From Octopus vulgaris (taxonomy: Eukaryota), in NCBI GenBank assembly GCA_951406725.2, contig OX597836.1:38068001-38132000 (forward strand): 64,000 nucleotides of DNA, read 5' to 3'. The notes beneath the pieces were generated by a model. The model made no database searches. It saw only the letters and a list, made by a program, of their open reading frames with translations, and had not been told where the DNA came from. The translations under genes were made by a program, and so were the position numbers. Every line of letters begins with the position of its first letter. The stretch's first letter is position 1. Positions 919 through 63,779 of the stretch are shown in pieces.

Positions 919-957
919 TAAAGTCCACAGAAACGATTGTCGATCGAAAGCCACCCG
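919..957 (+). CDS. 39-nt linker micro-exon of unit A, (V)KSTETIVDRKPP(G); first of 16 copies
   Basis: cttttcAG|taaagtcc...ccacccg|GTaaga, phase 1-1. Other copies start at 2764, 4610, 6456, 8302, 10148, 11994, 13840, 15686, 17540, 19386, 21240, 23087, 24932, 26779, 28625. Confidence 0.88.
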
Positions 958-3900
958 GTAAGACATTTCGAACGTATTGATTTTGGTTTTGTTACCTAGT
1001 GTAAAAGAAGGCAGGGCCCGTGTAGAAATGTAATTACAATTACTAAAGGGAATGAGACCTAATTAAAGGAATGTATTTGTTAGTGGTCTTTAGCTTGTGC
1101 GATTAATGTTTATAGGTGTATAGGTGTTGATGTTCAATGAACCACTATATTGAATTATTATGTATGCGTCAGTGTTAATTGATGGCTGCCTCCTTTTTGT
1201 TTAGGTCGTTGCAATACTGCTGAATCAGACATTGTGTTCGTTCTGGATTCTTCAACTAGCGTTACTGATGCAAACTTCAAGAAAATATTAGCTTTCATGA
1301 AAGATTTTCTGTCGGATGCTAGTATTGACTCGGGTAATGTTCGAGTGGGGGCAGTGATTTATAGCACTGATGTAGAGGTGCAGTTTCATTTGAATCGCTA
1401 CAGTTCCAAGCGTGATATCCTCGATGCTGTTGACAACATTGCCTATGTGTATGGAAGCACAAATACATATGGAGGTCTGCACACAGCCAGAACACAGATG
1501 TTCACTGCAGAAAATGGTGACAGAGCCGGTGTTCCTAACATCATTTTCCTCATAACTGATGGCGTTTCCAACGTCAATGCTTTGCAAACGATACCAGAAG
1601 CGGAGGCTATTCGTGCAGAAAACATCCATATTTACGCTATAGGTATAGGCCTTGCAGAAACTACAGAACTCGACAAAATTGCATCATCTCCAGCAAGCGC
1701 TAACAGTTTCACTGTGGAAGATTTTAATGAGCTTCAAGGCTTAAAACACACGATATTTGAATCTTACTGTCCCGGTACGTATATCTCGAAGAATATTACA
1801 CCTGTCATCGTCCTCGTCGAAGTTGTCGTCGTTCCTTTGAATGGGGTGAACGTCTTGAGGTTGTAGCGTTTTCAGTTGTAAATGTTTGCTGTTTTGCACC
1901 TCATCTGTTTCCTTAGTGATCTGTTTACACAGCTGTGCAAGCTGCGATTCTTGTTTACCTGGTTGATATTTTTGTAAATTCTTTATTGTGTGTTTGAATT
2001 TCTCTAGTGTTTAATATCAATGCTCTTTGTTTTCTGTACATTTGATTTGATATCTGCTGATGCAGTGAAATGGAGTATGAGTTGTTTTGGTGTTATTCAT
2101 TGAATCTAACAGAGCGATAATTGACTTTAAACAATAATTTTCATCGCCATGATTGTGATGTCACGTGTGTGTATATGCAGCAATGAATGCATGTAGAAAC
2201 AATTGCGTAGTTCTGAAGTATTCCTGTTTGTCGTTTACATGGACACAGTGTGTGAATTGTCTGAAAGGACAGAAAAAGTGTGAAAATATGGTGAGTTAAT
2301 TCACAAGAAACATGATGGAAAAAGAAATACTTATGAATAAATGCTGGTTTAATGAGCCATCTGATATATGCTCCACGTGAGACAATTTAAATGATAAGTA
2401 TGTCGTGAAAGTTATTGAAATTTAAGCATTGTGCTGTGTTTTGACAAGCGGCATTACTTTTTGCGCTTGGATATTTATAGTTTTTCGTGTATTTGAAAGA
2501 TTATGCTTGATTACGACATTGTAAAAGAATAATGAAAGTTGTTTCTGGTGTTTTCGATATTGTCGATGTTACGTAGGTTTGGTTTTTTATAAATCTGTTG
2601 TGTTTTTTTGCTGAAATTTCTATGGAATATTGTTTTAGTGAAATTAAGTTGTTTTATATAGAAAATTGATTGTCACTATGTATGTATGAGCAGAATAATA
2701 ATTATCGGAATGTAGGAACTGACGATTAATTTGAAATTCCTCTTGCCATTTTGCACTTTTCAGTAAAGTCCACAGAAACGATTGTCGATCGAAAGCCACC
2801 CGGTAAGACATTTCGAACGTATTGATTTTGGTTTTGTTACCTAGTGTAAAAGAAGGCAGGGCCCGTGTAGAAATGTAATTACAATTACTAAAGGGAATGA
2901 GACCTAATTAAAGGAATGTATTTGTTAGTGGTCTTTAGCTTGTGCGATTAATGTTTATAGGTGTATAGGTGTTGATGTTCAATGAACCACTATATTGAAT
3001 TATTATGTATGCGTCAGTGTTAATTGATGGCTGCCTCCTTTTTGTTTAGGTCGTTGCAATACTGCTGAATCAGACATTGTGTTCGTTCTGGATTCTTCAA
3101 CTAGCGTTACTGATGCAAACTTCAAGAAAATATTAGCTTTCATGAAAGATTTTCTGTCGGATGCTAGTATTGACTCGGGTAATGTTCGAGTGGGGGCAGT
3201 GATTTATAGCACTGATGTAGAGGTGCAGTTTCATTTGAATCGCTACAGTTCCAAGCGTGATATCCTCGATGCTGTTGACAACATTGCCTATGTGTATGGA
3301 AGCACAAATACATATGGAGGTCTGCACACAGCCAGAACACAGATGTTCACTGCAGAAAATGGTGACAGAGCCGGTGTTCCTAACATCATTTTCCTCATAA
3401 CTGATGGCGTTTCCAACGTCAATGCTTTGCAAACGATACCAGAAGCGGAGGCTATTCGTGCAGAAAACATCCATATTTACGCTATAGGTATAGGCCTTGC
3501 AGAAACTACAGAACTCGACAAAATTGCATCATCTCCAGCAAGCGCTAACAGTTTCACTGTGGAAGATTTTAATGAGCTTCAAGGCTTAAAACACACGATA
3601 TTTGAATCTTACTGTCCCGGTACGTATATCTCGAAGAATATTACACCTGTCATCGTCCTCGTCGAAGTTGTCGTCGTTCCTTTGAATGGGGTGAACGTCT
3701 TGAGGTTGTAGCGTTTTCAGTTGTAAATGTTTGCTGTTTTGCACCTCATCTGTTTCCTTAGTGATCTGTTTACACAGCTGTGCAAGCTGCGATTCTTGTT
3801 TACCTGGTTGATATTTTTGTAAATTCTTTATTGTGTGTTTGAATTTCTCTAGTGTTTAATATCAATGCTCTTTGTTTTCTGTACATTTGATTTGATATCT

Positions 3901-6900
3901 GCTGATGCAGTGAAATGGAGTATGAGTTGTTTTGGTGTTATTCATTGAATCTAACAGAGCGATAATTGACTTTAAACAATAATTTTCATCGCCATGATTG
4001 TGATGTCACGTGTGTGTATATGCAGCAATGAATGCATGTAGAAACAATTGCGTAGTTCTGAAGTATTCCTGTTTGTCGTTTACATGGACACAGTGTGTGA
4101 ATTGTCTGAAAGGACAGAAAAAGTGTGAAAATATGGTGAGTTAATTCACAAGAAACATGATGGGAAAAAGAAATACTTATGAATAAATGCTGGTTTAATG
4201 AGCAATCTGATATATGCTCCACGTGAGACAATTTAAATGATAAGTATGTCGTGAAAGTTATTGAAATTTAAGCATTGTGCTGTGTTTTGACAAGCGGCAT
4301 TACTTTTTGCGCTTGGATATTTATAGTTTTTCGTGTATTTGAAAGATTATGCTTGATTACGACATTGTAAAAGAATAATGAAAGTTGTTTCTGGTGTTTT
4401 CGATATTGTCGATGTTACGTAGGTTTGGTTTTTTATAAATCTGTTGTGTTTTTTTGCTGAAATTTCTATGGAATATTGTTTTAGTGAAATTAAGTTGTTT
4501 TATATAGAAAATTGATTGTCACTATGTATGTATGAGCAGAATAATAATTATCGGAATGTAGGAACTGACGATTAATTTGAAATTCCTCTTGCCATTTTGC
4601 ACTTTTCAGTAAAGTCCACAGAAACGATTGTCGATCGAAAGCCACCCGGTAAGACATTTCGAACGTATTGATTTTGGTTTTGTTACCTAGTGTAAAAGAA
4701 GGCAGGGCCCGTGTAGAAATGTAATTACAATTACTAAAGGGAATGAGACCTAATTAAAGGAATGTATTTGTTAGTGGTCTTTAGCTTGTGCGATTAATGT
4801 TTATAGGTGTATAGGTGTTGATGTTCAATGAACCACTATATTGAATTATTATGTATGCGTCAGTGTTAATTGATGGCTGCCTCCTTTTTGTTTAGGTCGT
4901 TGCAATACTGCTGAATCAGACATTGTGTTCGTTCTGGATTCTTCAACTAGCGTTACTGATGCAAACTTCAAGAAAATATTAGCTTTCATGAAAGATTTTC
5001 TGTCGGATGCTAGTATTGACTCGGGTAATGTTCGAGTGGGGGCAGTGATTTATAGCACTGATGTAGAGGTGCAGTTTCATTTGAATCGCTACAGTTCCAA
5101 GCGTGATATCCTCGATGCTGTTGACAACATTGCCTATGTGTATGGAAGCACAAATACATATGGAGGTCTGCACACAGCCAGAACACAGATGTTCACTGCA
5201 GAAAATGGTGACAGAGCCGGTGTTCCTAACATCATTTTCCTCATAACTGATGGCGTTTCCAACGTCAATGCTTTGCAAACGATACCAGAAGCGGAGGCTA
5301 TTCGTGCAGAAAACATCCATATTTACGCTATAGGTATAGGCCTTGCAGAAACTACAGAACTCGACAAAATTGCATCATCTCCAGCAAGCGCTAACAGTTT
5401 CACTGTGGAAGATTTTAATGAGCTTCAAGGCTTAAAACACACGATATTTGAATCTTACTGTCCCGGTACGTATATCTCGAAGAATATTACACCTGTCATC
5501 GTCCTCGTCGAAGTTGTCGTCGTTCCTTTGAATGGGGTGAACGTCTTGAGGTTGTAGCGTTTTCAGTTGTAAATGTTTGCTGTTTTGCACCTCATCTGTT
5601 TCCTTAGTGATCTGTTTACACAGCTGTGCAAGCTGCGATTCTTGTTTACCTGGTTGATATTTTTGTAAATTCTTTATTGTGTGTTTGAATTTCTCTAGTG
5701 TTTAATATCAATGCTCTTTGTTTTCTGTACATTTGATTTGATATCTGCTGATGCAGTGAAATGGAGTATGAGTTGTTTTGGTGTTATTCATTGAATCTAA
5801 CAGAGCGATAATTGACTTTAAACAATAATTTTCATCGCCATGATTGTGATGTCACGTGTGTGTATATGCAGCAATGAATGCATGTAGAAACAATTGCGTA
5901 GTTCTGAAGTATTCCTGTTTGTCGTTTACATGGACACAGTGTGTGAATTGTCTGAAAGGACAGAAAAAGTGTGAAAATATGGTGAGTTAATTCACAAGAA
6001 ACATGATGGGAAAAAGAAATACTTATGAATAAATGCTGGTTTAATGAGCAATCTGATATATGCTCCACGTGAGACAATTTAAATGATAAGTATGTCGTGA
6101 AAGTTATTGAAATTTAAGCATTGTGCTGTGTTTTGACAAGCGGCATTACTTTTTGCGCTTGGATATTTACAGTTTTTCGTGTATTTGAAAGATTATGCTT
6201 GATTACGACATTGTAAAAGAATAATGAAAGTTGTTTCTGGTGTTTTCGATATTGTCGATGTTACGTAGGTTTGGTTTTTTATAAATCTGTTGTGTTTTTT
6301 TGCTGAAATTTCTATGGAATATTGTTTTAGTGAAATTAAGTTGTTTTATATAGAAAATTGATTGTCACTATGTATGTATGAGCAGAATAATAATTATCGG
6401 AATGTAGGAACTGACGATTAATTTGAAATTCCTCTTGCCATTTTGCACTTTTCAGTAAAGTCCACAGAAACGATTGTCGATCGAAAGCCACCCGGTAAGA
6501 CATTTCGAACGTATTGATTTTGGTTTTGTTACCTAGTGTAAAAGAAGGCAGGGCCCGTGTAGAAATGTAATTACAATTACTAAAGGGAATGAGACCTAAT
6601 TAAAGGAATGTATTTGTTAGTGGTCTTTAGCTTGTGCGATTAATGTTTATAGGTGTATAGGTGTTGATGTTCAATGAACCACTATATTGAATTATTATGT
6701 ATGCGTCAGTGTTAATTGATGGCTGCCTCCTTTTTGTTTAGGTCGTTGCAATACTGCTGAATCAGACATTGTGTTCGTTCTGGATTCTTCAACTAGCGTT
6801 ACTGATGCAAACTTCAAGAAAATATTAGCTTTCATGAAAGATTTTCTGTCGGATGCTAGTATTGACTCGGGTAATGTTCGAGTGGGGGCAGTGATTTATA

Positions 6901-9900
6901 GCACTGATGTAGAGGTGCAGTTTCATTTGAATCGCTACAGTTCCAAGCGTGATATCCTCGATGCTGTTGACAACATTGCCTATGTGTATGGAAGCACAAA
7001 TACATATGGAGGTCTGCACACAGCCAGAACACAGATGTTCACTGCAGAAAATGGTGACAGAGCCGGTGTTCCTAACATCATTTTCCTCATAACTGATGGC
7101 GTTTCCAACGTCAATGCTTTGCAAACGATACCAGAAGCGGAGGCTATTCGTGCAGAAAACATCCATATTTACGCTATAGGTATAGGCCTTGCAGAAACTA
7201 CAGAACTCGACAAAATTGCATCATCTCCAGCAAGCGCTAACAGTTTCACTGTGGAAGATTTTAATGAGCTTCAAGGCTTAAAACACACGATATTTGAATC
7301 TTACTGTCCCGGTACGTATATCTCGAAGAATATTACACCTGTCATCGTCCTCGTCGAAGTTGTCGTCGTTCCTTTGAATGGGGTGAACGTCTTGAGGTTG
7401 TAGCGTTTTCAGTTGTAAATGTTTGCTGTTTTGCACCTCATCTGTTTCCTTAGTGATCTGTTTACACAGCTGTGCAAGCTGCGATTCTTGTTTACCTGGT
7501 TGATATTTTTGTAAATTCTTTATTGTGTGTTTGAATTTCTCTAGTGTTTAATATCAATGCTCTTTGTTTTCTGTACATTTGATTTGATATCTGCTGATGC
7601 AGTGAAATGGAGTATGAGTTGTTTTGGTGTTATTCATTGAATCTAACAGAGCGATAATTGACTTTAAACAATAATTTTCATCGCCATGATTGTGATGTCA
7701 CGTGTGTGTATATGCAGCAATGAATGCATGTAGAAACAATTGCGTAGTTCTGAAGTATTCCTGTTTGTCGTTTACATGGACACAGTGTGTGAATTGTCTG
7801 AAAGGACAGAAAAAGTGTGAAAATATGGTGAGTTAATTCACAAGAAACATGATGGGAAAAAGAAATACTTATGAATAAATGCTGGTTTAATGAGCAATCT
7901 GATATATGCTCCACGTGAGACAATTTAAATGATAAGTATGTCGTGAAAGTTATTGAAATTTAAGCATTGTGCTGTGTTTTAACAAGCGGCATTACTTTTT
8001 GCGCTTGGATATTTACAGTTTTTCGTGTATTTGAAAGATTATGCTTGATTACGACATTGTAAAAGAATAATGAAAGTTGTTTCTGGTGTTTTCGATATTG
8101 TCGATGTTACGTAGGTTTGGTTTTTTATAAATCTGTTGTGTTTTTTTGCTGAAATTTCTATGGAATATTGTTTTAGTGAAATTAAGTTGTTTTATATAGA
8201 AAATTGATTGTCACTATGTATGTATGAGCAGAATAATAATTATCGGAATGTAGGAACTGACGATTAATTTGAAATTCCTCTTGCCATTTTGCACTTTTCA
8301 GTAAAGTCCACAGAAACGATTGTCGATCGAAAGCCACCCGGTAAGACATTTCGAACGTATTGATTTTGGTTTTGTTACCTAGTGTAAAAGAAGGCAGGGC
8401 CCGTGTAGAAATGTAATTACAATTACTAAAGGGAATGAGACCTAATTAAAGGAATGTATTTGTTAGTGGTCTTTAGCTTGTGCGATTAATGTTTATAGGT
8501 GTATAGGTGTTGATGTTCAATGAACCACTATATTGAATTATTATGTATGCGTCAGTGTTAATTGATGGCTGCCTCCTTTTTGTTTAGGTCGTTGCAATAC
8601 TGCTGAATCAGACATTGTGTTCGTTCTGGATTCTTCAACTAGCGTTACTGATGCAAACTTCAAGAAAATATTAGCTTTCATGAAAGATTTTCTGTCGGAT
8701 GCTAGTATTGACTCGGGTAATGTTCGAGTGGGGGCAGTGATTTATAGCACTGATGTAGAGGTGCAGTTTCATTTGAATCGCTACAGTTCCAAGCGTGATA
8801 TCCTCGATGCTGTTGACAACATTGCCTATGTGTATGGAAGCACAAATACATATGGAGGTCTGCACACAGCCAGAACACAGATGTTCACTGCAGAAAATGG
8901 TGACAGAGCCGGTGTTCCTAACATCATTTTCCTCATAACTGATGGCGTTTCCAACGTCAATGCTTTGCAAACGATACCAGAAGCGGAGGCTATTCGTGCA
9001 GAAAACATCCATATTTACGCTATAGGTATAGGCCTTGCAGAAACTACAGAACTCGACAAAATTGCATCATCTCCAGCAAGCGCTAACAGTTTCACTGTGG
9101 AAGATTTTAATGAGCTTCAAGGCTTAAAACACACGATATTTGAATCTTACTGTCCCGGTACGTATATCTCGAAGAATATTACACCTGTCATCGTCCTCGT
9201 CGAAGTTGTCGTCGTTCCTTTGAATGGGGTGAACGTCTTGAGGTTGTAGCGTTTTCAGTTGTAAATGTTTGCTGTTTTGCACCTCATCTGTTTCCTTAGT
9301 GATCTGTTTACACAGCTGTGCAAGCTGCGATTCTTGTTTACCTGGTTGATATTTTTGTAAATTCTTTATTGTGTGTTTGAATTTCTCTAGTGTTTAATAT
9401 CAATGCTCTTTGTTTTCTGTACATTTGATTTGATATCTGCTGATGCAGTGAAATGGAGTATGAGTTGTTTTGGTGTTATTCATTGAATCTAACAGAGCGA
9501 TAATTGACTTTAAACAATAATTTTCATCGCCATGATTGTGATGTCACGTGTGTGTATATGCAGCAATGAATGCATGTAGAAACAATTGCGTAGTTCTGAA
9601 GTATTCCTGTTTGTCGTTTACATGGACACAGTGTGTGAATTGTCTGAAAGGACAGAAAAAGTGTGAAAATATGGTGAGTTAATTCACAAGAAACATGATG
9701 GGAAAAAGAAATACTTATGAATAAATGCTGGTTTAATGAGCAATCTGATATATGCTCCACGTGAGACAATTTAAATGATAAGTATGTCGTGAAAGTTATT
9801 GAAATTTAAGCATTGTGCTGTGTTTTGACAAGCGGCATTACTTTTTGCGCTTGGATATTTATAGTTTTTCGTGTATTTGAAAGATTATGCTTGATTACGA

Positions 9901-12900
9901 CATTGTAAAAGAATAATGAAAGTTGTTTCTGGTGTTTTCGATATTGTCGATGTTACGTAGGTTTGGTTTTTTATAAATCTGTTGTGTTTTTTTGCTGAAA
10001 TTTCTATGGAATATTGTTTTAGTGAAATTAAGTTGTTTTATATAGAAAATTGATTGTCACTATGTATGTATGAGCAGAATAATAATTATCGGAATGTAGG
10101 AACTGACGATTAATTTGAAATTCCTCTTGCCATTTTGCACTTTTCAGTAAAGTCCACAGAAACGATTGTCGATCGAAAGCCACCCGGTAAGACATTTCGA
10201 ACGTATTGATTTTGGTTTTGTTACCTAGTGTAAAAGAAGGCAGGGCCCGTGTAGAAATGTAATTACAATTACTAAAGGGAATGAGACCTAATTAAAGGAA
10301 TGTATTTGTTAGTGGTCTTTAGCTTGTGCGATTAATGTTTATAGGTGTATAGGTGTTGATGTTCAATGAACCACTATATTGAATTATTATGTATGCGTCA
10401 GTGTTAATTGATGGCTGCCTCCTTTTTGTTTAGGTCGTTGCAATACTGCTGAATCAGACATTGTGTTCGTTCTGGATTCTTCAACTAGCGTTACTGATGC
10501 AAACTTCAAGAAAATATTAGCTTTCATGAAAGATTTTCTGTCGGATGCTAGTATTGACTCGGGTAATGTTCGAGTGGGGGCAGTGATTTATAGCACTGAT
10601 GTAGAGGTGCAGTTTCATTTGAATCGCTACAGTTCCAAGCGTGATATCCTCGATGCTGTTGACAACATTGCCTATGTGTATGGAAGCACAAATACATATG
10701 GAGGTCTGCACACAGCCAGAACACAGATGTTCACTGCAGAAAATGGTGACAGAGCCGGTGTTCCTAACATCATTTTCCTCATAACTGATGGCGTTTCCAA
10801 CGTCAATGCTTTGCAAACGATACCAGAAGCGGAGGCTATTCGTGCAGAAAACATCCATATTTACGCTATAGGTATAGGCCTTGCAGAAACTACAGAACTC
10901 GACAAAATTGCATCATCTCCAGCAAGCGCTAACAGTTTCACTGTGGAAGATTTTAATGAGCTTCAAGGCTTAAAACACACGATATTTGAATCTTACTGTC
11001 CCGGTACGTATATCTCGAAGAATATTACACCTGTCATCGTCCTCGTCGAAGTTGTCGTCGTTCCTTTGAATGGGGTGAACGTCTTGAGGTTGTAGCGTTT
11101 TCAGTTGTAAATGTTTGCTGTTTTGCACCTCATCTGTTTCCTTAGTGATCTGTTTACACAGCTGTGCAAGCTGCGATTCTTGTTTACCTGGTTGATATTT
11201 TTGTAAATTCTTTATTGTGTGTTTGAATTTCTCTAGTGTTTAATATCAATGCTCTTTGTTTTCTGTACATTTGATTTGATATCTGCTGATGCAGTGAAAT
11301 GGAGTATGAGTTGTTTTGGTGTTATTCATTGAATCTAACAGAGCGATAATTGACTTTAAACAATAATTTTCATCGCCATGATTGTGATGTCACGTGTGTG
11401 TATATGCAGCAATGAATGCATGTAGAAACAATTGCGTAGTTCTGAAGTATTCCTGTTTGTCGTTTACATGGACACAGTGTGTGAATTGTCTGAAAGGACA
11501 GAAAAAGTGTGAAAATATGGTGAGTTAATTCACAAGAAACATGATGGGAAAAAGAAATACTTATGAATAAATGCTGGTTTAATGAGCAATCTGATATATG
11601 CTCCACGTGAGACAATTTAAATGATAAGTATGTCGTGAAAGTTATTGAAATTTAAGCATTGTGCTGTGTTTTGACAAGCGGCATTACTTTTTGCGCTTGG
11701 ATATTTACAGTTTTTCGTGTATTTGAAAGATTATGCTTGATTACGACATTGTAAAAGAATAATGAAAGTTGTTTCTGGTGTTTTCGATATTGTCGATGTT
11801 ACGTAGGTTTGGTTTTTTATAAATCTGTTGTGTTTTTTTGCTGAAATTTCTATGGAATATTGTTTTAGTGAAATTAAGTTGTTTTATATAGAAAATTGAT
11901 TGTCACTATGTATGTATGAGCAGAATAATAATTATCGGAATGTAGGAACTGACGATTAATTTGAAATTCCTCTTGCCATTTTGCACTTTTCAGTAAAGTC
12001 CACAGAAACGATTGTCGATCGAAAGCCACCCGGTAAGACATTTCGAACGTATTGATTTTGGTTTTGTTACCTAGTGTAAAAGAAGGCAGGGCCCGTGTAG
12101 AAATGTAATTACAATTACTAAAGGGAATGAGACCTAATTAAAGGAATGTATTTGTTAGTGGTCTTTAGCTTGTGCGATTAATGTTTATAGGTGTATAGGT
12201 GTTGATGTTCAATGAACCACTATATTGAATTATTATGTATGCGTCAGTGTTAATTGATGGCTGCCTCCTTTTTGTTTAGGTCGTTGCAATACTGCTGAAT
12301 CAGACATTGTGTTCGTTCTGGATTCTTCAACTAGCGTTACTGATGCAAACTTCAAGAAAATATTAGCTTTCATGAAAGATTTTCTGTCGGATGCTAGTAT
12401 TGACTCGGGTAATGTTCGAGTGGGGGCAGTGATTTATAGCACTGATGTAGAGGTGCAGTTTCATTTGAATCGCTACAGTTCCAAGCGTGATATCCTCGAT
12501 GCTGTTGACAACATTGCCTATGTGTATGGAAGCACAAATACATATGGAGGTCTGCACACAGCCAGAACACAGATGTTCACTGCAGAAAATGGTGACAGAG
12601 CCGGTGTTCCTAACATCATTTTCCTCATAACTGATGGCGTTTCCAACGTCAATGCTTTGCAAACGATACCAGAAGCGGAGGCTATTCGTGCAGAAAACAT
12701 CCATATTTACGCTATAGGTATAGGCCTTGCAGAAACTACAGAACTCGACAAAATTGCATCATCTCCAGCAAGCGCTAACAGTTTCACTGTGGAAGATTTT
12801 AATGAGCTTCAAGGCTTAAAACACACGATATTTGAATCTTACTGTCCCGGTACGTATATCTCGAAGAATATTACACCTGTCATCGTCCTCGTCGAAGTTG

Positions 12901-36329: not shown

Positions 36330-36365
<36 letters not shown>

Positions 36366-54300: not shown

Positions 54301-57300
54301 TGTCTTTGCTATATATGTGAGTTGTGTATTTCTCGTTCAATGTTTTCGCAAGTTGTCTAATATGGAAATTTGAAACGAATGTTCGGATGCTTCTTCCAGT
54401 GAATGTTAGATGTTGAATGCCTGCAATTTCTCCGTATATAATTGAGTGTTCTTTTGTTTTCTTTTGTCAATATGGAAAGCGATTTTCCATGCAACACTGT
54501 CGCTGCAGGATTCGACATCATTTCGGTTAAAGTGTATGTGATAACATTTGTTTGTTGTTGTTCTGATAGTTCCTGTCATGTTTCGTCTTCAATTGTTGAT
54601 ACTCTGTTGTGAACCAGTTTTGAGGTAGTTGTGATGAAATATCTTGTTTTGTTTTGTGAGTTTTCAGATGTTTGTATTTTCGGAACTGTTTTTGTGCATA
54701 AGTACATGTAGTGTAAAATTGTAACTTTGCGTCATTGAAATAGTTTTGAAATAGTATTGTAGATATATGTGTTGGCCGTGTATTACTGGATAGGTGATAA
54801 GTTATCCTAATGTTCTCCAGGTGATTGTGGTGCTACAGAATCTGACATCATCTTCATTTTGGACTCATCAACTAGTGTCCAAGAAGAAAACTTCAAGAAA
54901 ATGCTAAATTTCATTGTTGATTTTGTGTCTGCTGCTTCCATTGACAATGGCAATGTTCGAATCGGTGCAGTCCTTTACAGTTCAGACGTGAAAATCCAAT
55001 TCCATTTGAATGCTTTCCAAACAAAGCAAGAAGTAATCGATGCAGTCCTCCAAATTCCATATGTTTACGGCAGTACAAACACTTACGGCGGGCTTAACAC
55101 CATGCGGACTGTAATGTTTACGACAGAGAATGGTGACAGGCCGTCCGTTCCCAATATTGCCATTCTGCTCACCGACGGCGTATCGAACGTCAATGCTTAC
55201 GACACTATTCCAGAAGCAAAGAAAGTGAGAGAGGATGGCATCCACATATATGCTATTGGTATTGGTCTCAGTGACACTACAGAATTGAGCCAGATTTCCT
55301 CATTACCTGTTGACGAAAACATGTTTATTGTGACTGACTTCAACGAACTGTCGAATCTGAAAGAAAGAATATTTGAGCAATATTGCCCAGGTATAGCAAT
55401 TAGCATGTGATTACAAAACGAAGTTGTATTGTAAAGCATTACTAATCAATGATATAATCTCAGCTATTCTACAAAGATATATTTAACACCATCTCCTACT
55501 GTGTTACTTTCAAGTCTGAGCTTCAGTTAACGTTTTGTGCAAGTATTTACCATTGACGTTTCTAATGACGCTAACAATCTCTCGTAATGTGAATTGTTTT
55601 TAGCAACATACCTTTTGTTGCCTTCTGTTGTCTATCTTCATTTCCAACGACTCACACCCTTAATGGAAAGATTGTATGTTTGATATTGCTGTGTTAAGTG
55701 GAAGTAATTATGAATAAGTAAATAACATGTTTTATAAATGGTGATAATCGAGTAGGAAGTTTCCTTCCGAATCTCTCTTACTAATATACCCATATGTTAC
55801 TAGATAAACAACATTTCTTTGTGTCTTTATGAAAATAATGCTGTTAATGTACTAATGCTGTTGGTATTTGCTTCTCCTTCCTCAATATTCTTATTTCTTT
55901 CAAATGTGATATACAGTTCATGTTTTTACTACATCTAAATCATATTGCCCTTCCTAATATATTTTAACTACACTTGACATAATTACAATGATTTTTCTAA
56001 TGTTTATAATTGTGTTGTCGAATGTAACATTGATTACTGGATGAAAGCTTGTAGAACTTCAGGATATTATAGAAAATCCACTTGCAATGGTCTACAATAA
56101 TACGTTTACTAATTATAAGCGTTTAAGTTGATATGTACCAGCTCCTATCTTAATTTATATACTTTGAAATTATTTTTGTTTCCACTACTAATGACGTTGA
56201 TTAAACTTAACGACTGAAATCTTACCAATTTCTTCTTATCTAACATATCATATTCCTTGTATAGTTTTGAAAAGACTCTAACATTTCATTCATATAATTT
56301 GAGATAATGAATATTGTATTGCGTTATTTTCAAGAACCTACTCTACTTTCAAGAGATGTGTATTTCGTACATAGTTTATGTATTTGTGAAAAGCTTAATT
56401 CAATCTGACAACGCATGTCGTCTGAGAAAGTGTGGCGTAATGCATTATTTCCTATACAGGCAACTTGTTGTATACCTATCGTGTAACATATATGTTTTCT
56501 CTACATTTATACATGAATACAAAGATACATACATCCATATATATATGAATAGCTAGCTAGATATATATATAAGTTCCAGTGTAGGTATGCATTTACTCAC
56601 ATGTGTATATATCTTGTCAGTATATTGGCGTATATCTGTATAGATATATGTACATGTGCATAAATATGTTTTCCAATATGCTGAAATGCATTTTTTTACG
56701 TGTATTTACGTCTAGATAAGTATGCTTCTATTTACGTGCAAATGTGGGGTGAGTGATTCATTGTCAGATAGATAAACTCATGTACAGGTGTGTGCTTGAT
56801 AGTTGGAGTGTGAGAGAGCATTACACTTGCATTCAATATAGATATATATGGGAGTATTACTAAGTTTTGTGATTATTTTTCCTTGGAAGGAGGGCAACCA
56901 AAACCTACTAGACAGCCACCTATAATTGAGATGACGACAAAGAGAGGTGAGACATTAAGAAACCCTTTATTGCCTTTTAGTAAACGTATATGCTGACATC
57001 CATCTTATTCTCATCACGTTTGATATCAATGTGTAGCAAAGATTTTAATAGCCAATGTACAACCAGTAAGGATTTACTTTCTACATAAAGATAGTAGGTG
57101 TGAATTGTTGTATAGATTTTCCATATGTTTTCATTCAGAGAATTATTACAAGCAGTGATTCTCACTATTCATTGAGAGAAGATAGTAATGTGGAGTAAAG
57201 TATATTGTTTGTGTGTGTGTGTAGAAAGAAGACTTGACAACAGATGTTTGTACATGGAACAGTAAATGTTAATTTTATTTCTCGCAGTTGTGGAGAAAAC

Positions 57301-60300
57301 TCCGGCACCTGCCATTACATTACCAACAAAGGGTAAGGCTCTCGTACTGCTCAACATATTCTTTGTTAATAGAGTGTTGTAGATTTGTATGTGTTCATGT
57401 TGTTGGTGGGCGTACATGTTTACATGTTAAAGGGTATTGTTATTGACGAGAATTATGTTGGTTATCAGAGAAACTCAGTGCTTTTGTCTATATGTGTATT
57501 GATTTTTAGACATTTGTCTTTGCTATATATGTGAGTTGTGTATTTCTCGTTCAATGTTTTCGCAAGTTGTCTAATATGGAAATTTGAAACGAATGTTCGG
57601 ATGCTTCTTCCAGTGAATGTTAGATGTTGAATGCCTGCAATTTCTCCGTATATAATTGAGTGTTCTTTTGTTTTCTTTTGTCAATATGGAAAGCGATTTT
57701 CCATGCAACACTGTCGCTGCAGGATTCGACATCATTTCGGTTAAAGTGTATGTGATAACATTTGTTTGTTGTTGTTCTGATAGTTCCTGTCATGTTTCGT
57801 CTTCAATTGTTGATACTCTGTTGTGAACCAGTTTTGAGGTAGTTGTGATGAAATATCTTGTTTTGTTTTGTGAGTTTTCAGATGTTTGTATTTTCGGAAC
57901 TGTTTTTGTGCATAAGTACATGTAGTGTAAAATTGTAACTTTGCGTCATTGAAATAGTTTTGAAATAGTATTGTAGATATATGTGTTGGCCGTGTATTAC
58001 TGGATAGGTGATAAGTTATCCTAATGTTCTCCAGGTGATTGTGGTGCTACAGAATCTGACATCATCTTCATTTTGGACTCATCAACTAGTGTCCAAGAAG
58101 AAAACTTCAAGAAAATGCTAAATTTCATTGTTGATTTTGTGTCTGCTGCTTCCATTGACAATGGCAATGTTCGAATCGGTGCAGTCCTTTACAGTTCAGA
58201 CGTGAAAATCCAATTCCATTTGAATGCTTTCCAAACAAAGCAAGAAGTAATCGATGCAGTCCTCCAAATTCCATATGTTTACGGCAGTACAAACACTTAC
58301 GGCGGGCTTAACACCATGCGGACTGTAATGTTTACGACAGAGAATGGTGACAGGCCGTCCGTTCCCAATATTGCCATTCTGCTCACCGACGGCGTATCGA
58401 ACGTCAATGCTTACGACACTATTCCAGAAGCAAAGAAAGTGAGAGAGGATGGCATCCACATATATGCTATTGGTATTGGTCTCAGTGACACTACAGAATT
58501 GAGCCAGATTTCCTCATTACCTGTTGACGAAAACATGTTTATTGTGACTGACTTCAACGAACTGTCGAATCTGAAAGAAAAAATATTTGAGCAATATTGC
58601 CCAGGTATAGCAATTAGCATGTGATTACAAAACGAAGTTGTATTGTAAAGCATTACTAATCAATGATATAATCTCAGCTATTCTACAAAGATATATTTAA
58701 CACCATCTCCTACCTCGTTACTTTCAAGTCTGAGCTTTAGTTAATGTTTTGTGCAAGTATTTACCATTGACGTTTCTAACGACGCTAACAATCTCTCGTA
58801 ATGTGAATTGTTTTTAGCAACATACCTTTTGTTGCCTTCTGTTGTCTATCTTCATTTCCAACGACTCACACCCTTAATGGAAAGATTGTATGTTTGATAT
58901 TGCTGTGTTAAGTGGAAGTAATTATGAATAAGTAAATAACATGTTTTATAAATGGTGATAATCGAGTAGGAAGTTTCCTTCCGAATCTCTCTTACTAATA
59001 TACCCATATGTTACTAGATAAACAACATTTCTTTGTGTCTTTATGAAAATAATGCTGTTAATGTACTAATGCTGTTGGTATTTGCTTCTCCTTCCTCAAT
59101 ATTCTTATTTCTTTCAAATGTGATATACAGTTCATGTTTTTACTACATCTAAATCATATTGCCCTTCCTAATATATTTTAACTACACTTGACATAATTAC
59201 AATGATTTTTCTAATGTTTATAATTGTGTTGTCGAATGTAACATTGATTACTGGATGAAAGCTTGTAGAACTTCAGGATATTATAGAAAATCCACTTGCA
59301 ATGGTCTACAATAATACGTTTACTAATTATAAGCGTTTAAGTTGATATGTACCAGCTCCTATCTTAATTTATATACTTTGAAATTATTTTTGTTTCCACT
59401 ACTAATGACGTTGATTAAACTTAACGACTGAAATCTTACCAATTTCTTCTTATCTAACATATAATATTCCTTGTATAGTTTTGAAAAGACTCTAACATTT
59501 CATTCATATAATTTGAGATAATGAATATTGTATTGCGTTATTTTCAAGAACCTACTCTACTTTCAAGAGATGTGTATTTCGTACATAGTTTATGTATTTG
59601 TGAAAAGCTTAATTCAATCTGACAACGCATGTAGTCTGAGAAAGTGTGGCGTAATGCATTATTTCCTATACAGGCAACTTGTTGTATACCTATCGTGTAA
59701 TATATATGTTTTCTCTACATTTATACATGAATACAAAGATACATACATCCATATATATATATGAATAGCTAGCTAGATATATATATAAGTTCCAGTGTTG
59801 GTATGCATTTACTCACATGTGTATATATCTTGTCAGTATATTGGCGTATATCTGTATAGATATATGTACATGTGCTTGTGCATAAATATGTTTTCCAATA
59901 TGCTGAAATGCATTTTTTAACGTGTATTTACGTCTAGATAAGTATGCTTCTATTTACGTGCAAATGTGGGGTGAGTGATTCATTGTCAGATAGATAAACT
60001 CATGTACAGGTGTGTGCTTGATAGTTGGAGTGTGAGAGAGCATTACACATGCATTCAATATAGATATATATGGGAGTATTACTAAGTTTTGTGATTATTT
60101 TTCCTTGGAAGGAGGGCAACCAGAACCTACTAGACAGCCACCTATAATTGAGATGACGACAAAGAGAGGTGAGACATTAAGAAACCCTTTATTGCCTTTT
60201 AGTAAACGTATATGCTGACATCCATCTTATTCTCATCACGTTTGATATCAATGTGTAGCAAAGATTTTAATAGCCAATGTACAACCAGTAAGGATTTACT

Positions 60301-63300
60301 TTCTACATAAAGATAGTAGGTGTGAATTGTTATATAGATTTTTCCATATGTTTTCATACAAAGAATTATTACAAGCAGTGATTCTCACTATTCATTGAGA
60401 GAAGATAGTAATGTGGAGTAAAGTGTATTGTTTGTGTGTGTGTGTACAAAGAAGACTTGACAACAGATGTTTGTACATGGAACAGTAAATGTTAATTTTG
60501 TTTCTCGCAGTTGTGGAGAAAACTCCGGCACCTGCCATTACATTACCAACAAAGGGTAAGGCTCTCGTACTGCTCAACATATTCTTTGTTAATAGAGTGT
60601 TGTAGATTTGTATGTGTTCATGTTGTTGGTGGGCGTACATGTTTACATGTTATAGGGTATTGTTATTGCCGAGAATTATGTTGGTTATCAGAGAAACTCA
60701 GTGCTTTTGTCTATATGTGTATTGATTTTTAGACATTTGTCTTTGCTATATATGTGAGTTTTGTATTTCTCGTTCAGTGTTTTCGCAAGTTGTCTAATAT
60801 GGAAATTTCAAACGAATGTTCGGATGCTTCTTCCAGTGAATGTTAGATGTTGAATGCCTGCAATTTCTTCGTATATAATTGAGTGTTCTTTTGTTTTCTT
60901 TTGTCAATATGGAACGCGATTTTCCATGCAACACTGTCGCTGCAGGATTCGACATCGTTTCGGTTGAAGTGTATGTGATAACATTTGTTTGTTGTTGTTC
61001 TGATAGTTCCTGTCATGTTTCGTCTTCAATTGTTGATACTCTGTTGTGAACCAGTTTTGAGGTAGTTGTGATGAAATATCTTGTTTTGTTTTGTGAGTTT
61101 TCAGATGTTTGTTTTTTCGGAACTGTTTTTGTGCATAAGTACATGTAGTGTAAAATTGTAACTTTGCGTCATTGAAATAGTTTTGAAATAGTATTGTAGA
61201 TATATGTGTTGGCCGTGTATTACTGGATAGGTGATAAGTTATCCTAATGTTCTCCAGGTGATTGTGGTGCTACAGAATCTGACATCATCTTCATTTTGGA
61301 CTCATCAACTAGTGTCCAAGAAGAAAACTTCAAGAAAATGCTAAATTTCATTGTTGATTTTGTGTCTGCTGCTTCCATTGACAATGGCAATGTTCGAATC
61401 GGTGCAGTCCTTTACAGTTCAGACGTGAAAATCCAATTCCATTTGAATGCTTTCCAAACAAAGCAAGAAGTAATCGATGCAGTCCTCCAAATTCCATATG
61501 TTTACGGCAGTACAAACACTTACGGCGGGCTTAACACCATGCGGACTGTAATGTTCACGACAGAGAATGGTGACAGGCCGTCCGTTCCCAATATTGCCAT
61601 TCTGCTCACCGACGGCGTATCGAACGTCAATGCTTACGACACTATTCCAGAAGCAAAGAAAGTGAGAGAGGATGGCATCCACATATATGCTATTGGTATT
61701 GGTCTCAGTGACACTACAGAATTGAGCCAGATTTCCTCATTACCTGTTGACGAAAACATGTTTATTGTGACTGACTTCAACGAACTGTCGAATCTGAAAG
61801 AAAGAATATTTGAGCAATATTGCCCAGGTATAGCAATTAGCATGTGATTACAAAACGAAGTTGTATTGTAAAGCATTACTAATCAATGATATAATCTCAG
61901 CTATTCTACAAAGATATATTTAACACCATCTCCTACCTCGTTACTTTCAAGTCTGAGCTTCAGTTAACGTTTTGTGCAAGTATTTACCATTGACGTTTCT
62001 AACGACGCTAACAATCTCTCGTAATGTGAATTGTTTTTAGCAACATACCTTTTGTTGCCTTCTGTTGTCTATCTTCATTTCCAACGACTCACACCCTTAA
62101 TGGAAAGATTGTATGTTTGATATTGCTGTGTTAAGTGGAAGTAATTATGAATAAGTAAATAACATGTTTTATAAATGGTGATAATCGAGTAGGAAGTTTC
62201 CTTCCGAATCTCTCTTACTAATATACCCATATGTTACTAGATAAACAACATTTCTTTGTGTCTTTATGAAAATAATGCTGTTAATGTACTAATGCTGTTG
62301 GTATTTGCTTCTCCTTCCTCAATATTCTTATTTCTTTCAAATGTGATATACAGTTCATGTTTTTACTACATCTAAATCATATTGCCCTTCCTAATATATT
62401 TTAACTACACTTGACATAATTACAATGATTTTTCTAATGTTTATAATTGTGTTGTCGAATGTAACATTGATTACTGGATGAAAGCTTGTAGAACTTCAGG
62501 ATATTATAGAAAATCCACTTGCAATGGTCTACAATAATACGTTTACTAATTATAAGCGTTTAAGTTGATATGTACCAGCTCCTATCTTAATTTATATACT
62601 TTGAAATTATTTTTGTTTCCACTACTAATGACGTTGATTAAACTTAACGACTGAAATCTTACCAATTTCTTCTTATCTAACATATAATATTCCTTGTATA
62701 GTTTTGAAAAGGCTCTAACATTTCATTCATATAATTTGAGATAATGAATATTGTATTGCGTTATTTTCAAGAACCTACTCTACTTTCAAGAGATGTGTAT
62801 TTCGTACATAGTTTATGTATTTGTGAAAAGCTTAATTCAATCTGACAACGCATGTAGTCTGAGAAAGTGTGGCGTAATGCATTATTTCCTATACAGGCAA
62901 CTTGTTGTATACCTATCGTGTAATATATATGTTTTCTCTACATTTATACATGAATACAAAGATACATACATCCATATATATATATATGAATAGCTAGCTA
63001 GATATATATATAAGTTCCAGTGTAGGTATGCATTTACTCACATGTGTATATATCTTGTCAGTATATTGGCGTATATCTGTATGGATATATGTACATGTGC
63101 ATGTGCATAAATATGTTTTCCAATATGCTGAAATGCATTTTCTTACGTGTATTTACGTCTAGATAAGTATGCTTCTATTTACGTGCAAATGTGGGGTGAG
63201 TGATTCATTGTCAGATAGATAAACTCATGTACAGGTGTGTGCTTGATAGTTGGAGTGTGAGAGAGCATTACACTTGCATTCAATATAGATATATATGGGA

Positions 63301-63779
63301 GTATTACTAAGTTTTGTGATTATTTTTCCTTGGAAGGAGGGCAACCAGAACCTACTAGACAGCCACCTATAATTGAGATGACGACAAAGAGAGGTGAGAC
63401 ATTAAGAAACCCTTTATTGCCTTTTAGTAAACGTATATGCTGACATCCATCTTATTCTCATCACGTTTGATATCAATGTGTAGCAAAGATTTTAATAGCC
63501 AATTGACAACCAGTAAGGATTTACTTTCTACATAAAGATAGTAGGTGTGAATTGTTGTATAGATTTTCCATATGTTTTCATTCAGAGAATTATTACAAGC
63601 AGTGATTCTCACTATTCATTGAGAGAAGATAGTAATGTGGAGTAAAGTGTATTGTTTGTGTGTGTGTGTACAAAGAAGACTTGACAACTGCTGTTTGAAC
63701 ATGGAACAGTAAATGTTAATTTTGTTTCTCGCAGTTGTGGAGAAAACTCCGGCACCTGCCATTACTTTACCAACAAAGG
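919..63779 (+). CDS. Internal part of a giant multi-exon poly-VWA extracellular protein gene (collagen VI/matrilin-like VWA domains), 24 intact VWA exons plus linker micro-exons
   Basis: All VWA exons are 570 nt, AG/GT-bounded and phase 1-1; micro-exons are 39, 45 or 57 nt and phase 1-1, so they join in frame. VWA motifs: DIVFVLDSSTS (MIDAS DxSxS), GSTNT, ITDG/LTDG, IYAIGIG. No ATG/signal peptide exon or stop-containing terminal exon seen. Confidence 0.88.
1205..1774 (+). CDS. VWA exon A1
   Basis: tttttgtttAG|gtcgttgc...tgtcccg|GTacgt; 570 nt; (G)RCNTAESDIVFVLDSSTS...FESYCP. Confidence 0.93.
3050..3619 (+). CDS. VWA exon A2
   Basis: Same protein and splice sites as A1. Confidence 0.93.
4896..5465 (+). 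CDS. VWA exon A3
   Basis: Same protein and splice sites as A1. Confidence 0.93.
6742..7311 (+). CDS. VWA exon A4
   Basis: Same protein and splice sites as A1. Confidence 0.93.
8588..9157 (+). CDS. VWA exon A5
   Basis: Same protein and splice sites as A1. Confidence 0.93.
10434..11003 (+). CDS. VWA exon A6
   Basis: Same protein and splice sites as A1. Confidence 0.93.
12280..12849 (+). CDS. VWA exon A7
   Basis: Same protein and splice sites as A1. Confidence 0.93.
14126..14695 (+). CDS. VWA exon A8
   Basis: Same protein and splice sites as A1. Confidence 0.93.
15972..16541 (+). CDS. VWA exon A9
   Basis: Same protein and splice sites as A1. Confidence 0.93.
17826..18395 (+). CDS. VWA exon A10
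   Basis: Same protein and splice sites as A1. Confidence 0.93.
19672..20241 (+). CDS. VWA exon A11
   Basis: Same protein and splice sites as A1. Confidence 0.93.
21526..22095 (+). CDS. VWA exon A12
   Basis: Same protein as A1; synonymous AAA>AAG at 21998. Confidence 0.93.
23373..23942 (+). CDS. VWA exon A13
   Basis: Same protein and splice sites as A1. Confidence 0.93.
25218..25787 (+). CDS. VWA exon A14
   Basis: Same protein as A1; synonymous AAA>AAG at 25690. Confidence 0.93.
27065..27634 (+). CDS. VWA exon A15
   Basis: Same protein as A1; synonymous AAA>AAG at 27537. Confidence 0.93.
28911..29480 (+). CDS. VWA exon A16 (last type-A exon)
   Basis: Same protein and splice sites as A1. 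Confidence 0.93.
30310..30780 (+). mobile_element. Non-LTR retroelement fragment (SINE or LINE 3' end) with (GAT)n tail
   Basis: GC-richer island with internal repeats of tggcacataaaa(g)gca and a 3' end ...ttggcgttaggaagggcatc...catggaaagcggatgttaaa(tga)n; resembles an abundant octopus retroelement 3' end from memory. The 5' boundary is approximate. Confidence 0.7.
32700..32850. repeat. 30-bp minisatellite (gacaaagtaatgttggacgaaaagacattt), ~3 good and ~2 degenerate copies
   Basis: Direct repeats start at 32761, 32791 and 32821, with degenerate copies upstream. Confidence 0.85.
33379..34597 (-). mobile_element. Decayed near full-length mariner (Tc1/mariner) DNA transposon, ~1.22 kb
   Basis: Imperfect ~30-bp TIRs (ttggcttgtggtgtaattcatgagcgtttt vs reverse complement of aaaatgctcatgaattattcctcaactaaa), flanked by TA. 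Minus-strand transposase remnants: WVPHTL, IVTGNEKW, LQHNNTRPH, HPPYS, broken by stops and frameshifts. Confidence 0.92.
35261..35305 (+). CDS. 45-nt linker micro-exon in a degenerate unit, (V)LEKTPAPAIILPTK(G)
   Basis: tttttcgcAG|ttctggag...acaaagg|GTaagg; splice sites intact, frame open, phase 1-1. Confidence 0.6.
35467..35852 (-). mobile_element. tRNA-derived SINE
   Basis: Minus strand begins ggcgcaggagtggctgtgtggtaag...ggttccggattcagtccc (Pol III A/B-box-like head) and has an internal (TA)/(TG) tract. It is absent from homologous introns of other units, with a possible TATAT target duplication. Resembles octopus SINEs from memory. Confidence 0.82.
36331..36363. repeat. (TA)n microsatellite
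   Basis: About 15 perfect TA dinucleotides. Confidence 0.9.
36556..36612 (+). pseudogene. Pseudo-exon copy of the 57-nt linker with an in-frame TGA
   Basis: Homologous to 39690..39746, same length and GTgaga donor; TGA at 36570-36572; acceptor GAG instead of AAG. Confidence 0.6.
36936..36980 (+). CDS. 45-nt linker micro-exon of unit B, (V)VEKTPAPAITLPTK(G)
   Basis: tttctcacAG|ttgtcgag...acaaagg|GTaagg, phase 1-1. Other copies: 40092-40136, 43241-43285, 47636-47680, 50856-50900, 54074-54118, 57288-57332, 60511-60555, 63735-63779. Confidence 0.88.
37658..38227 (+). CDS. VWA exon B1-1
   Basis: tgttctccAG|gtgattgt...tgcccag|GTatag; 570 nt; (G)DCGGTESDIIFILDSSTS...FEQYCP. Confidence 0.93.
39690..39746 (+). 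CDS. Probable 57-nt Pro/Thr-rich linker micro-exon of unit B, (G)GQPEPTRRTPIIETTRKS / (G)GQPEPTRQPPIIEMTTKR
   Basis: ttattttttcgttggaAG|gaggtcaacc...aagagcg|GTgaga; 57 nt, phase 1-1, open in 8 copies (also 42848-42904, 47238-47294, 50458-50514, 53676-53732, 56890-56946, 60112-60168, 63337-63393); synonymous changes between B1 and B2. Confidence 0.68.
40814..41383 (+). CDS. VWA exon B1-2
   Basis: 570 nt, same splice sites as B1-1. Confidence 0.93.
43962..44531 (+). CDS. VWA exon B1-3
   Basis: 570 nt, same splice sites as B1-1. Confidence 0.93.
45587..45750 (+). pseudogene. 5'-deleted VWA exon remnant (REEGIHIYAIGVG...EQYCL)
   Basis: Intron sequence is fused directly to the last ~54 codons of a type-B exon; GT donor retained, normal acceptor lost. 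Confidence 0.85.
48383..48952 (+). CDS. VWA exon B2-1
   Basis: 570 nt, AG/GT-bounded, (G)DCGATESDIIFILDSSTS...FEQYCP. Confidence 0.93.
51603..52172 (+). CDS. VWA exon B2-2
   Basis: Same structure as B2-1. Confidence 0.93.
54821..55390 (+). CDS. VWA exon B2-3
   Basis: Same structure as B2-1. Confidence 0.93.
58035..58604 (+). CDS. VWA exon B2-4
   Basis: Same structure as B2-1. Confidence 0.93.
61258..61827 (+). CDS. VWA exon B2-5
   Basis: Same structure as B2-1. Confidence 0.93.

Follow-up and report, generated by a model that had tools for sequence, protein, structure and literature searches.

A stretch of 64,000 nucleotides (nt) of the 2.8-Gb Octopus vulgaris genome (contig OX597836.1; G000:C23:38,068,001-38,132,000, here called the window) contains an array of exons for VWA domains, and the array is larger than a preliminary description of the same DNA had stated. 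We propose, with a probability of roughly 0.6, that the window is the spliced central block of a single 361-kb gene encoding a secreted chain of ~60 VWA and four EGF domains and ~13,000 amino acids (aa), which is likely a metal-dependent cross-linker of connective tissue. Positions beyond its ends are given on the same scale (C23 position minus 38,068,000).

Six-frame translation of the window yielded 24 VWA-length open frames on the plus strand, each extending from an AG acceptor to a GT donor as a 570-nt exon in phase 1. Together with 34 linker micro-exons they make up 58 exons that occupy 24% of the window. The preliminary description had claimed 24 intact VWA exons, all phase 1-1, in one continuous frame, and all 58 exons indeed have AG/GT ends, are phase 1-1, and are free of stops. 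When joined, they encode 5,070 aa with 0 stops, rather than the 4,900 to 5,000 aa first estimated, because a 57-nt linker (8 copies) had been overlooked. Sixteen VWA exons are of type A (1205..29480) and eight are of type B (37658..61827); the linkers comprise 16 A linkers of 39 nt (first at 919), 10 linkers of 45 nt (last ending at 63779), and 8 of 57 nt. The amino acid sequence is the same in all 16 A domains, as had been reported, and A and B domains share 65 to 66% identity instead of the ~60% estimated by eye. The earlier count of eight B domains stood, but not their uniformity, since they fall into two subtypes, three B-I and five B-II in the window. Pfam VWA (PF00092) E values of 1e-46 and 6e-45 exclude a chance match. 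The 57-nt linker (GQPEPTR...) is also present in the Octopus sinensis RefSeq model, and cuttlefish protein P0010 has a linker resembling it after its B-like repeats. Tandem Repeats Finder (period limit 500) did not report the 1.85-kb and 3.2-kb units. Minus-strand open reading frames (ORFs) in the window were rejected as genes, being antisense of VWA exons or intron noise. The window contains the following elements.

919..29480, plus strand: window share of the A array, 16 copies of a 39-nt linker exon plus a 570-nt VWA exon, unit ~1,846 bp (from exon and frame analysis; spliced unit length matched in public run X19)
29481..30311, plus strand: last A intron, broken off at the start of an interspersed repeat, with no A linker after A16
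34891..34935, plus strand: decayed copy of the 57-nt linker exon with an in-frame stop; the end is approximate
35261..35305, plus strand: intact 45-nt linker exon (LEKTPAPAIILPTK), the remainder of a B unit whose VWA exon is lost
35889..35947, plus strand: remnant of a B VWA exon, 59 nt, 59/59 identical to B-I, with flanks 24 to 29% diverged
36556..36612, plus strand: broken 57-nt linker exon with an in-frame TGA
36936..36980, plus strand: 45-nt linker exon ahead of B1
37658..44531, plus strand: B-I subarray with VWA exons at 37658, 40814, and 43962, 57-nt linkers at 39690 and 42848, and 45-nt linkers at 40092 and 43241
45588..45750, plus strand: 3' third of a B-II VWA exon fused into a B-I intron at the subarray junction, likely an unused exon
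47238..63779, plus strand: window share of the B-II subarray with VWA exons at 48383, 51603, 54821, 58035, and 61258, each after a 57-nt and a 45-nt linker, and one extra linker pair (same exon order in RefSeq XP_036368516.1)

Linker micro-exons are intact at places where the VWA exon of the unit has decayed (35261-36980 in the window, and -20921 upstream). Such orphan linkers may be included by splicing, which would make the junctions between blocks longer. Very abundant interspersed repeats lie at the end of the A array (30300-30780) and in the A-B spacer (35470-35860), with summed contig depth up to 3e5; the depth is very high at 30436-30826, just past the last A intron.

The exon series continues on both sides of the window. 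Flanks of 330 kb upstream and 270 kb downstream were examined, and the 664 kb in total contain no N. Exons of the locus are 92 to 100% identical to Octopus bimaculoides and O. sinensis proteins, and the following elements were located.

-89924 to -89850, plus strand: signal-peptide-like exon, 25/25 aa identical to XP_052831933.1, with a phase-1 donor
-73981, -63661, -59940, and -40642, plus strand: four divergent VWA exons
-23940, plus strand: A0 VWA exon, 84% identical to A
-20921, plus strand: decayed A unit with its linker kept
From -19141, plus strand: 27 A exons, 11 of them upstream of the window
Last at 77358, plus strand: 13 B exons, with 5 B-II downstream of the window
86621-181265, plus strand: 28 located phase-1 Pro/Thr micro-exons of 33 to 81 nt
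182197-243321, plus strand: 11 divergent core VWA exons
From 251567, plus strand: end cassette of six VWA with four EGF
Near 271207, plus strand: stop codon

The exons of the predicted gene sum to 13,055 aa with 60 VWA domains over ~361 kb, or to 13,433 aa when two exons skipped by the O. sinensis model are added (range, 60 to 62 VWA). The N-terminal share of this sum rests on the O. bimaculoides model, and a few micro-exons may be missing. The frame had been described as open at both window edges, with at least 16 A and 8 B domains; this was an understatement, as the flanks give 27 A, 13 B, ~60 VWA in all, a Pro/Thr tract, and a VWA/EGF end. Likewise, the terminal exons that were to be sought beyond the window were found as the VWA/EGF cassette and stop, secretion is predicted from the signal-peptide exon 90 kb upstream, and the proposed highly multivalent protein of >500 kDa becomes a predicted ~60-VWA chain of ~1.4 MDa (109 Da per residue, all exons used). 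The phase-1 micro-exons explain the 100-kb gap after B13. A separate gene in this gap was rejected, as tblastn of 78 homologues gave no match there and its ORFs look repeat derived. The only VWA in this stretch is a truncated exon (177304-177800) with ~150 open codons, encoding protein 98% identical to O. bimaculoides; its internal GTGAGT donor is used by one database model and skipped by another.

Database models and public sequencing runs were compared with this exon series. XP_036368516.1 (O. sinensis, 4,624 aa) starts inside a B-II exon, covers 4.5 B-II units followed by the Pro/Thr tract and end cassette, and is colinear with the locus DNA, mostly at 93 to 100% identity. In the full-length bivalve proteins P0069, P0070, and P0076, a signal peptide is followed by divergent VWA domains, then by core VWA domains and the VWA/EGF cassette. 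Splitting by annotation, which had been foreseen, is seen in this O. sinensis start and in O. bimaculoides, where the gene is spread over at least three models. The domain, parts, and fragments of the octopus gene are already in databases under automatic names, the gene itself solely as pieces labeled collagen VI.

The A unit or part of it is present in 20 of 24 listed public runs, from 9 studies, and 4 of the 24 were placed on 28481-40200. Exon-bounded contigs occur in three of these four (X18, X19, and X20), from three studies. In X19, record 9 (639 nt) matches an exon end with letters 1 to 127 and an exon start with letters 167 to 639, leaving 39 letters between them; 639 is 570 + 39 + 30, the length of a circularized spliced A unit at a word size of 31, which we take to be that of these contigs. 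Tandem head-to-tail splicing is the simpler reading of this contig, although circular RNA gives an identical one. X20 record 24 begins 29 letters before the acceptor and stops exactly at donor 29480, and X18 record 3 departs from the exon at the donor (29479). Ahead of B acceptors, X19 record 15 carries 222 unplaced letters, which fits an exon tail of 121 plus 57 plus 45, and X20 record 29 carries 81. Run X2 has unspliced contigs (1,877 = 1,847 + 30) and behaves like DNA. Of the spliced junctions proposed earlier as a check, the A-to-A unit length was recovered in X19, but the A16-to-B junction was not seen in the placed runs.

The relationship to other mollusc proteins was assessed with a quick maximum-likelihood tree of 192 domains from 15 proteins plus 7 locus exons (domains of <140 aa dropped), with support given by the Shimodaira-Hasegawa-like approximate likelihood ratio test (SH-aLRT) only. 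Cassette domains C2 to C6 cluster by position across octopus, snails, and bivalves (SH-aLRT of 100, 99, 100, 85, and 99), and four EGF exons lie at matching places, so that orthology of the cassette is found for five of its six domains. Another group (support, 94) unites the N-terminal domains of octopus with those of bivalves and snails. In contrast to this positional pattern, core domains cluster by species: 17 rows of Batillaria (98), 6 of Pomacea (96), 6 of Physella (100), 5 and 6 of Mizuhopecten (100 and 99), and octopus B with cuttlefish (99). Adjacent core copies are 95 to 100% identical in Batillaria and 91 to 98% in Pomacea. The core repeats of the orthologues therefore likely evolve in concert, and the middle of the gene likely expanded separately in several lineages. 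Long homogenized VWA arrays recur in the family, which makes the window less unique and the finding more general. The protein search had a ceiling of 5,000 aa, so equally long orthologue models may exist. Haliotis P0068 has seven identical VWA domains but no end cassette and was left out of the orthologues. In the Elysia model P0162, an N-terminal-type domain seems to be repeated; with P0068, it is a further mollusc VWA array.

The only protein-level localization found for the family is in internal connective tissue of a snail. Pomacea XP_025106551.1, with VWA and four EGF domains, no triple helix, and a mass of 286 kDa, is listed with 12 to 28 unique peptides in the proteome of the connective-tissue-rich ampulla and increases about twofold upon nematode treatment (excerpts of PMC8533556). 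From its name series and architecture, this protein is likely an isoform of orthologue P0067. The preliminary description had inferred a secreted, multivalent matrix, adhesive, or mucus protein and had pointed to byssus and shell proteins; the secreted multivalent spliced frame stood, and an adhesive, byssus-like, or shell role is so far unsupported, given this localization and a host that is an octopus by protein identity. The literature search returned no account of this gene, its arrays, or its orthogroup (subscription papers were mostly outside its coverage), and six family identifiers searched by accession gave no match. Excerpts of PMC7333891, PMC11291548, and PMC13394694 deal with other VWD or VWA families.

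The A and B beads have a complete metal ion-dependent adhesion site (MIDAS; DSSTS, GSTNT, and ITDG/LTDG), and in three N-terminal domains H replaces D in the motif. Each bead contains exactly two Cys, one per domain end, has an isoelectric point of 4.3 to 4.6, and lacks an N-glycosylation motif in both A and B. A bead model with a predicted local distance difference test score of 93 gave Foldseek template modeling (TM) scores of 0.88 to 0.91 (0.90 with collagen VI alpha3 N2 and 0.91 with PTMP1). A self-association model of two A beads with Mg scored 0.00 and carries no weight either way. In integrin I domains, the MIDAS binds an acidic ligand residue via Mg, and disulfides between the N and C termini stabilize VWF A1 and A3. 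By analogy, each bead may bind an acidic side chain of a matrix partner, e.g., collagen, through Mg or Ca, and its two Cys would form an N-to-C disulfide that keeps the bead folded under load. Spacing between beads would come from the short Pro/Thr linkers, which are likely O-glycosylated, and many weak identical sites along a chain a few hundred nm long would give strong yet reversible binding. The divergent ends may serve assembly or anchoring. Every window bead is a single symmetric phase-1 exon, so that duplication, loss, or skipping of a unit leaves the reading frame unchanged.

Several points weigh against a single gene spliced throughout. The RefSeq models are predictions themselves, and the four placed runs are RNA by guess only. 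In these runs no read or contig joins A to the N-terminal exons or bridges A16 and B, none covers more than one unit, and the joints in the 15 listed of 122 rows are interspersed-repeat ones only. The linkers in the contigs are identified by length. The first VWA of the bivalve and snail orthologues was not detected in the 330 kb upstream, and cassette domain C1 stands apart from its positional partners on a long branch. In the O. bimaculoides N-terminal model, the frame runs into an intron after the third VWA and stops there, and this model may be a real short product.

This last model, XP_052831933.1, would also fit a locus of at least two neighboring genes, with three VWA in a short upstream gene and the arrays in a separate one, and the junction from the third VWA exon to A0 is unobserved. 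However, its stop follows a GTGAGT donor in phase 1, bivalve orthologues unite both parts, and no second signal-peptide exon was seen (the interval was covered by the Pro/Thr micro-exon scan only); we regard adjacent genes as very improbable. A single gene could instead be a cassette of variable length whose full chain is rarely made, with phase-1 skipping and early termination producing a series of shorter products. In favor of this reading, the window exons and the Pro/Thr exons located are all phase 1-1, some database models leave out exons with intact sequence at this locus (204259, 242755, and some 45-nt linkers), orthologues are annotated with many isoforms, and the Pomacea form detected is the one of 286 kDa. 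The assembled path in X19 is nevertheless head-to-tail A-to-A splicing, which indicates that beads are not mutually exclusive, and orthologue models contain up to 19 core domains in succession. We consider a full chain made only rarely unlikely, yet far from negligible.

The copy number could be an assembly artifact of a short array, as A units that are 99.7 to 99.9% identical to one another are the hardest case for assembly. In X2, moreover, contig depth is higher for B-I (26 to 33) than for B-II (12 to 17), opposite to the 3 B-I and 10 B-II of the assembly, and no further B-I copies were found elsewhere in it (14/14 matches at the locus). This mismatch is a hint of copy number variation or collapse, contig depth being a poor measure; the A:B depth ratio varies by run (~2:1, 1:1, and 0.4:1) and was not used as evidence. 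Against an artifact, the 26 complete A units comprise 21 distinct sequences whose variants form positional blocks, and 12/12 B units are distinct. The locus is free of N, 4.5 B-II units occur independently in the O. sinensis model, and the X2 depth of 42.3 on the A unit versus 0.3 to 2 in four unique bins fits a large array, so that a short array is hardly credible. The product might also be mainly an external secretion, either skin mucus or an adhesive of suckers or egg strings, comparable to the matrilin-like VWA/EGF proteins in slug glue, a reading to which the Pro/Thr-rich tract lends itself. Gel-forming mucins carry VWD and cystine-knot domains, neither of which is among the Pfam matches; a Pro/Ala/Thr tract of 392 aa is all that recalls them. 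Bivalves, snails, and cephalopods, moreover, all retain the family despite very different secretions. VWA/EGF matrilin-like proteins are named as constituents of a semislug adhesive (excerpts of PMC11178922), and unnamed VWFA, collagen alpha-3 and 4, and cartilage matrix proteins are reported from octopus skin mucus (excerpts of PMC11431876), which leaves room for a role in secretion; however, no link between them and this gene was found. The limpet adhesive candidates bear vWFD, not VWA, domains (excerpts of PMC7333891). Overall, a mainly external role appears improbable.

With the single spliced gene as the preferred reading, the arrays are informative about how the units evolve. The mean difference between A copies is 0.12% in exons and 0.28% in introns. 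B-I and B-II exons differ at 17 of 570 nt (~3%; synonymous, 9/125), whereas their flanking introns differ at 337 of 1,148 (29%; Fisher P = 9e-9 for the exon-intron contrast), and the shift in divergence falls within ~30 nt of the exon edges. In a control comparison, A0 and A differ at 33 of 126 synonymous sites, which indicates that such sites are free to change. We infer gene conversion confined to exons, with selection on synonymous sites as the alternative, from this one pair of subtypes. Unequal crossing-over likely lengthens and shortens the array, and gene conversion, persisting where exons keep units alike, would homogenize it. Ratios of nonsynonymous to synonymous change of ~0.27 (A0 versus A) and 0.21 to 0.31 (B-I versus B-II) demonstrate purifying selection on the beads at the level of these sequence comparisons.

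The closest known relatives are molluscan proteins automatically named collagen alpha-3(VI)-like (O. sinensis XP_036368516.1, O. bimaculoides XP_052831933.1 and A0A0L8FLC0, Pomacea XP_025106489.1, Mizuhopecten XP_021375367.1, Batillaria KAK7502428.1, and Potamilus KAK3599021.1). They share the orthologous end cassette and the same core VWA type (~55 to 64% identity outside cephalopods) with species-specific core repeats, but their models have 13 to 24 VWA domains and 2,900 to 4,900 aa (under the 5,000-aa ceiling), in contrast to 60 to 62 VWA with 27 + 13 homogenized copies at the octopus locus. No function is assigned to them in the literature searched. Collagen VI alpha3 itself is similar in its tandem VWA beads, as the best PDB sequence match, and in the N2 fold. 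It differs in that the octopus sequences contain no Gly-X-Y runs (≥5 triplets in P0171; ≥6 in the three plus-strand frames of 464 kb), no PF01391, and no match to an alpha3-type Kunitz domain in P0171 or P0067, and fish collagen VI domains form a separate clade in 15 of 16 tree rows. The Pfam content of P0171, 20 VWA and 4 EGF, is a matrilin-type combination, and VWA with a MIDAS plus EGF and Cys at domain ends are features of matrilins and of slug-glue matrilin-like proteins. Matrilins, however, have one or two VWA domains and multimerize through a coiled coil, whereas here ~60 VWA place the valency inside one chain. The Pfam scan gave no match to a C-terminal coiled-coil domain of this kind, and the tail is acidic. 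The mussel byssus protein PTMP1 also has molluscan MIDAS-type VWA domains, with a zinc-occupied MIDAS structure on record; it has two domains and 28% identity and, going by a paper title, reportedly binds collagen. The shell proteins Pif and BMSP carry chitin-binding and laminin G domains behind the VWA (excerpts of PMC11291548), and Pfam found neither domain in P0171 or P0163.

In excerpts of PMC5597905, three mollusc genomes are described as lacking collagens that bear both VWA and helix, and VWA proteins (VWAPs) are proposed to cross-link into networks. The octopus protein falls in this collagen-related class, having collagen-like VWA and no triple helix, although the class is loose and descriptive and is not a clade. 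The gene is a new, extreme variant of the multi-VWA matrix proteins and is not collagen VI, a matrilin, or Pif. Apolipoprotein(a) KIV-2 arrays and spidroin repeats are likewise intragenic tandem exon-intron units with near-identical domains, concerted evolution, and variable copy number. They encode other domains, and the octopus gene has two successive arrays in a family that likely expanded separately in several mollusc lineages.

A broader interpretation, which we offer tentatively and at somewhat less than even odds, is that octopus produces a 39-kb mRNA encoding a 1.4-MDa secreted chain of 60 VWA, one of the largest known secreted proteins, and that this chain is the extreme of an unrecognized pan-molluscan family with fixed ends. 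The middle would be a genetic length dial, set by lineage-wise expansion, copy number varying between individuals, and exon-bounded conversion, and the chain would take the place of collagen VI microfibrils where helix-bearing VWA collagens are lacking. One gene model would replace several misnamed collagen VI fragments and is about three times longer than any orthologue model retrieved. It brings to light a conserved family of mollusc matrix proteins in which valency evolves via exon-unit duplication, and the B-subtype exon-intron contrast is a clean case of intragenic concerted evolution. Two ideas become testable, soft-tissue cross-linking in molluscs said to lack VWA-plus-helix collagens (excerpts of PMC5597905) and bead number as a tuner of tissue mechanics. 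A natural polymer of one identical 21-kDa bead of recombinant size is also a ready scaffold for biomaterials.

Other VWA exons occur elsewhere in the genome. A second VWA exon array lies on the minus strand at G000:C3:144,715,000-144,829,000, with a unit of ~7.2 kb and 97 to 99% identity (5 exons in the 40 kb examined and ~11 full-length matches in the genome search). Its domains are strongly Lys/Arg rich, a charge opposite to that of the acidic A and B beads. A dispersed 219-nt fragment of the A exon, 97.7% identical, is found at G000:C3:32,788,857-32,789,075. Among the 150 candidates scored out of 206, contigs C3, C4, C9, and C27 contain many more clusters of single-exon VWA matches.

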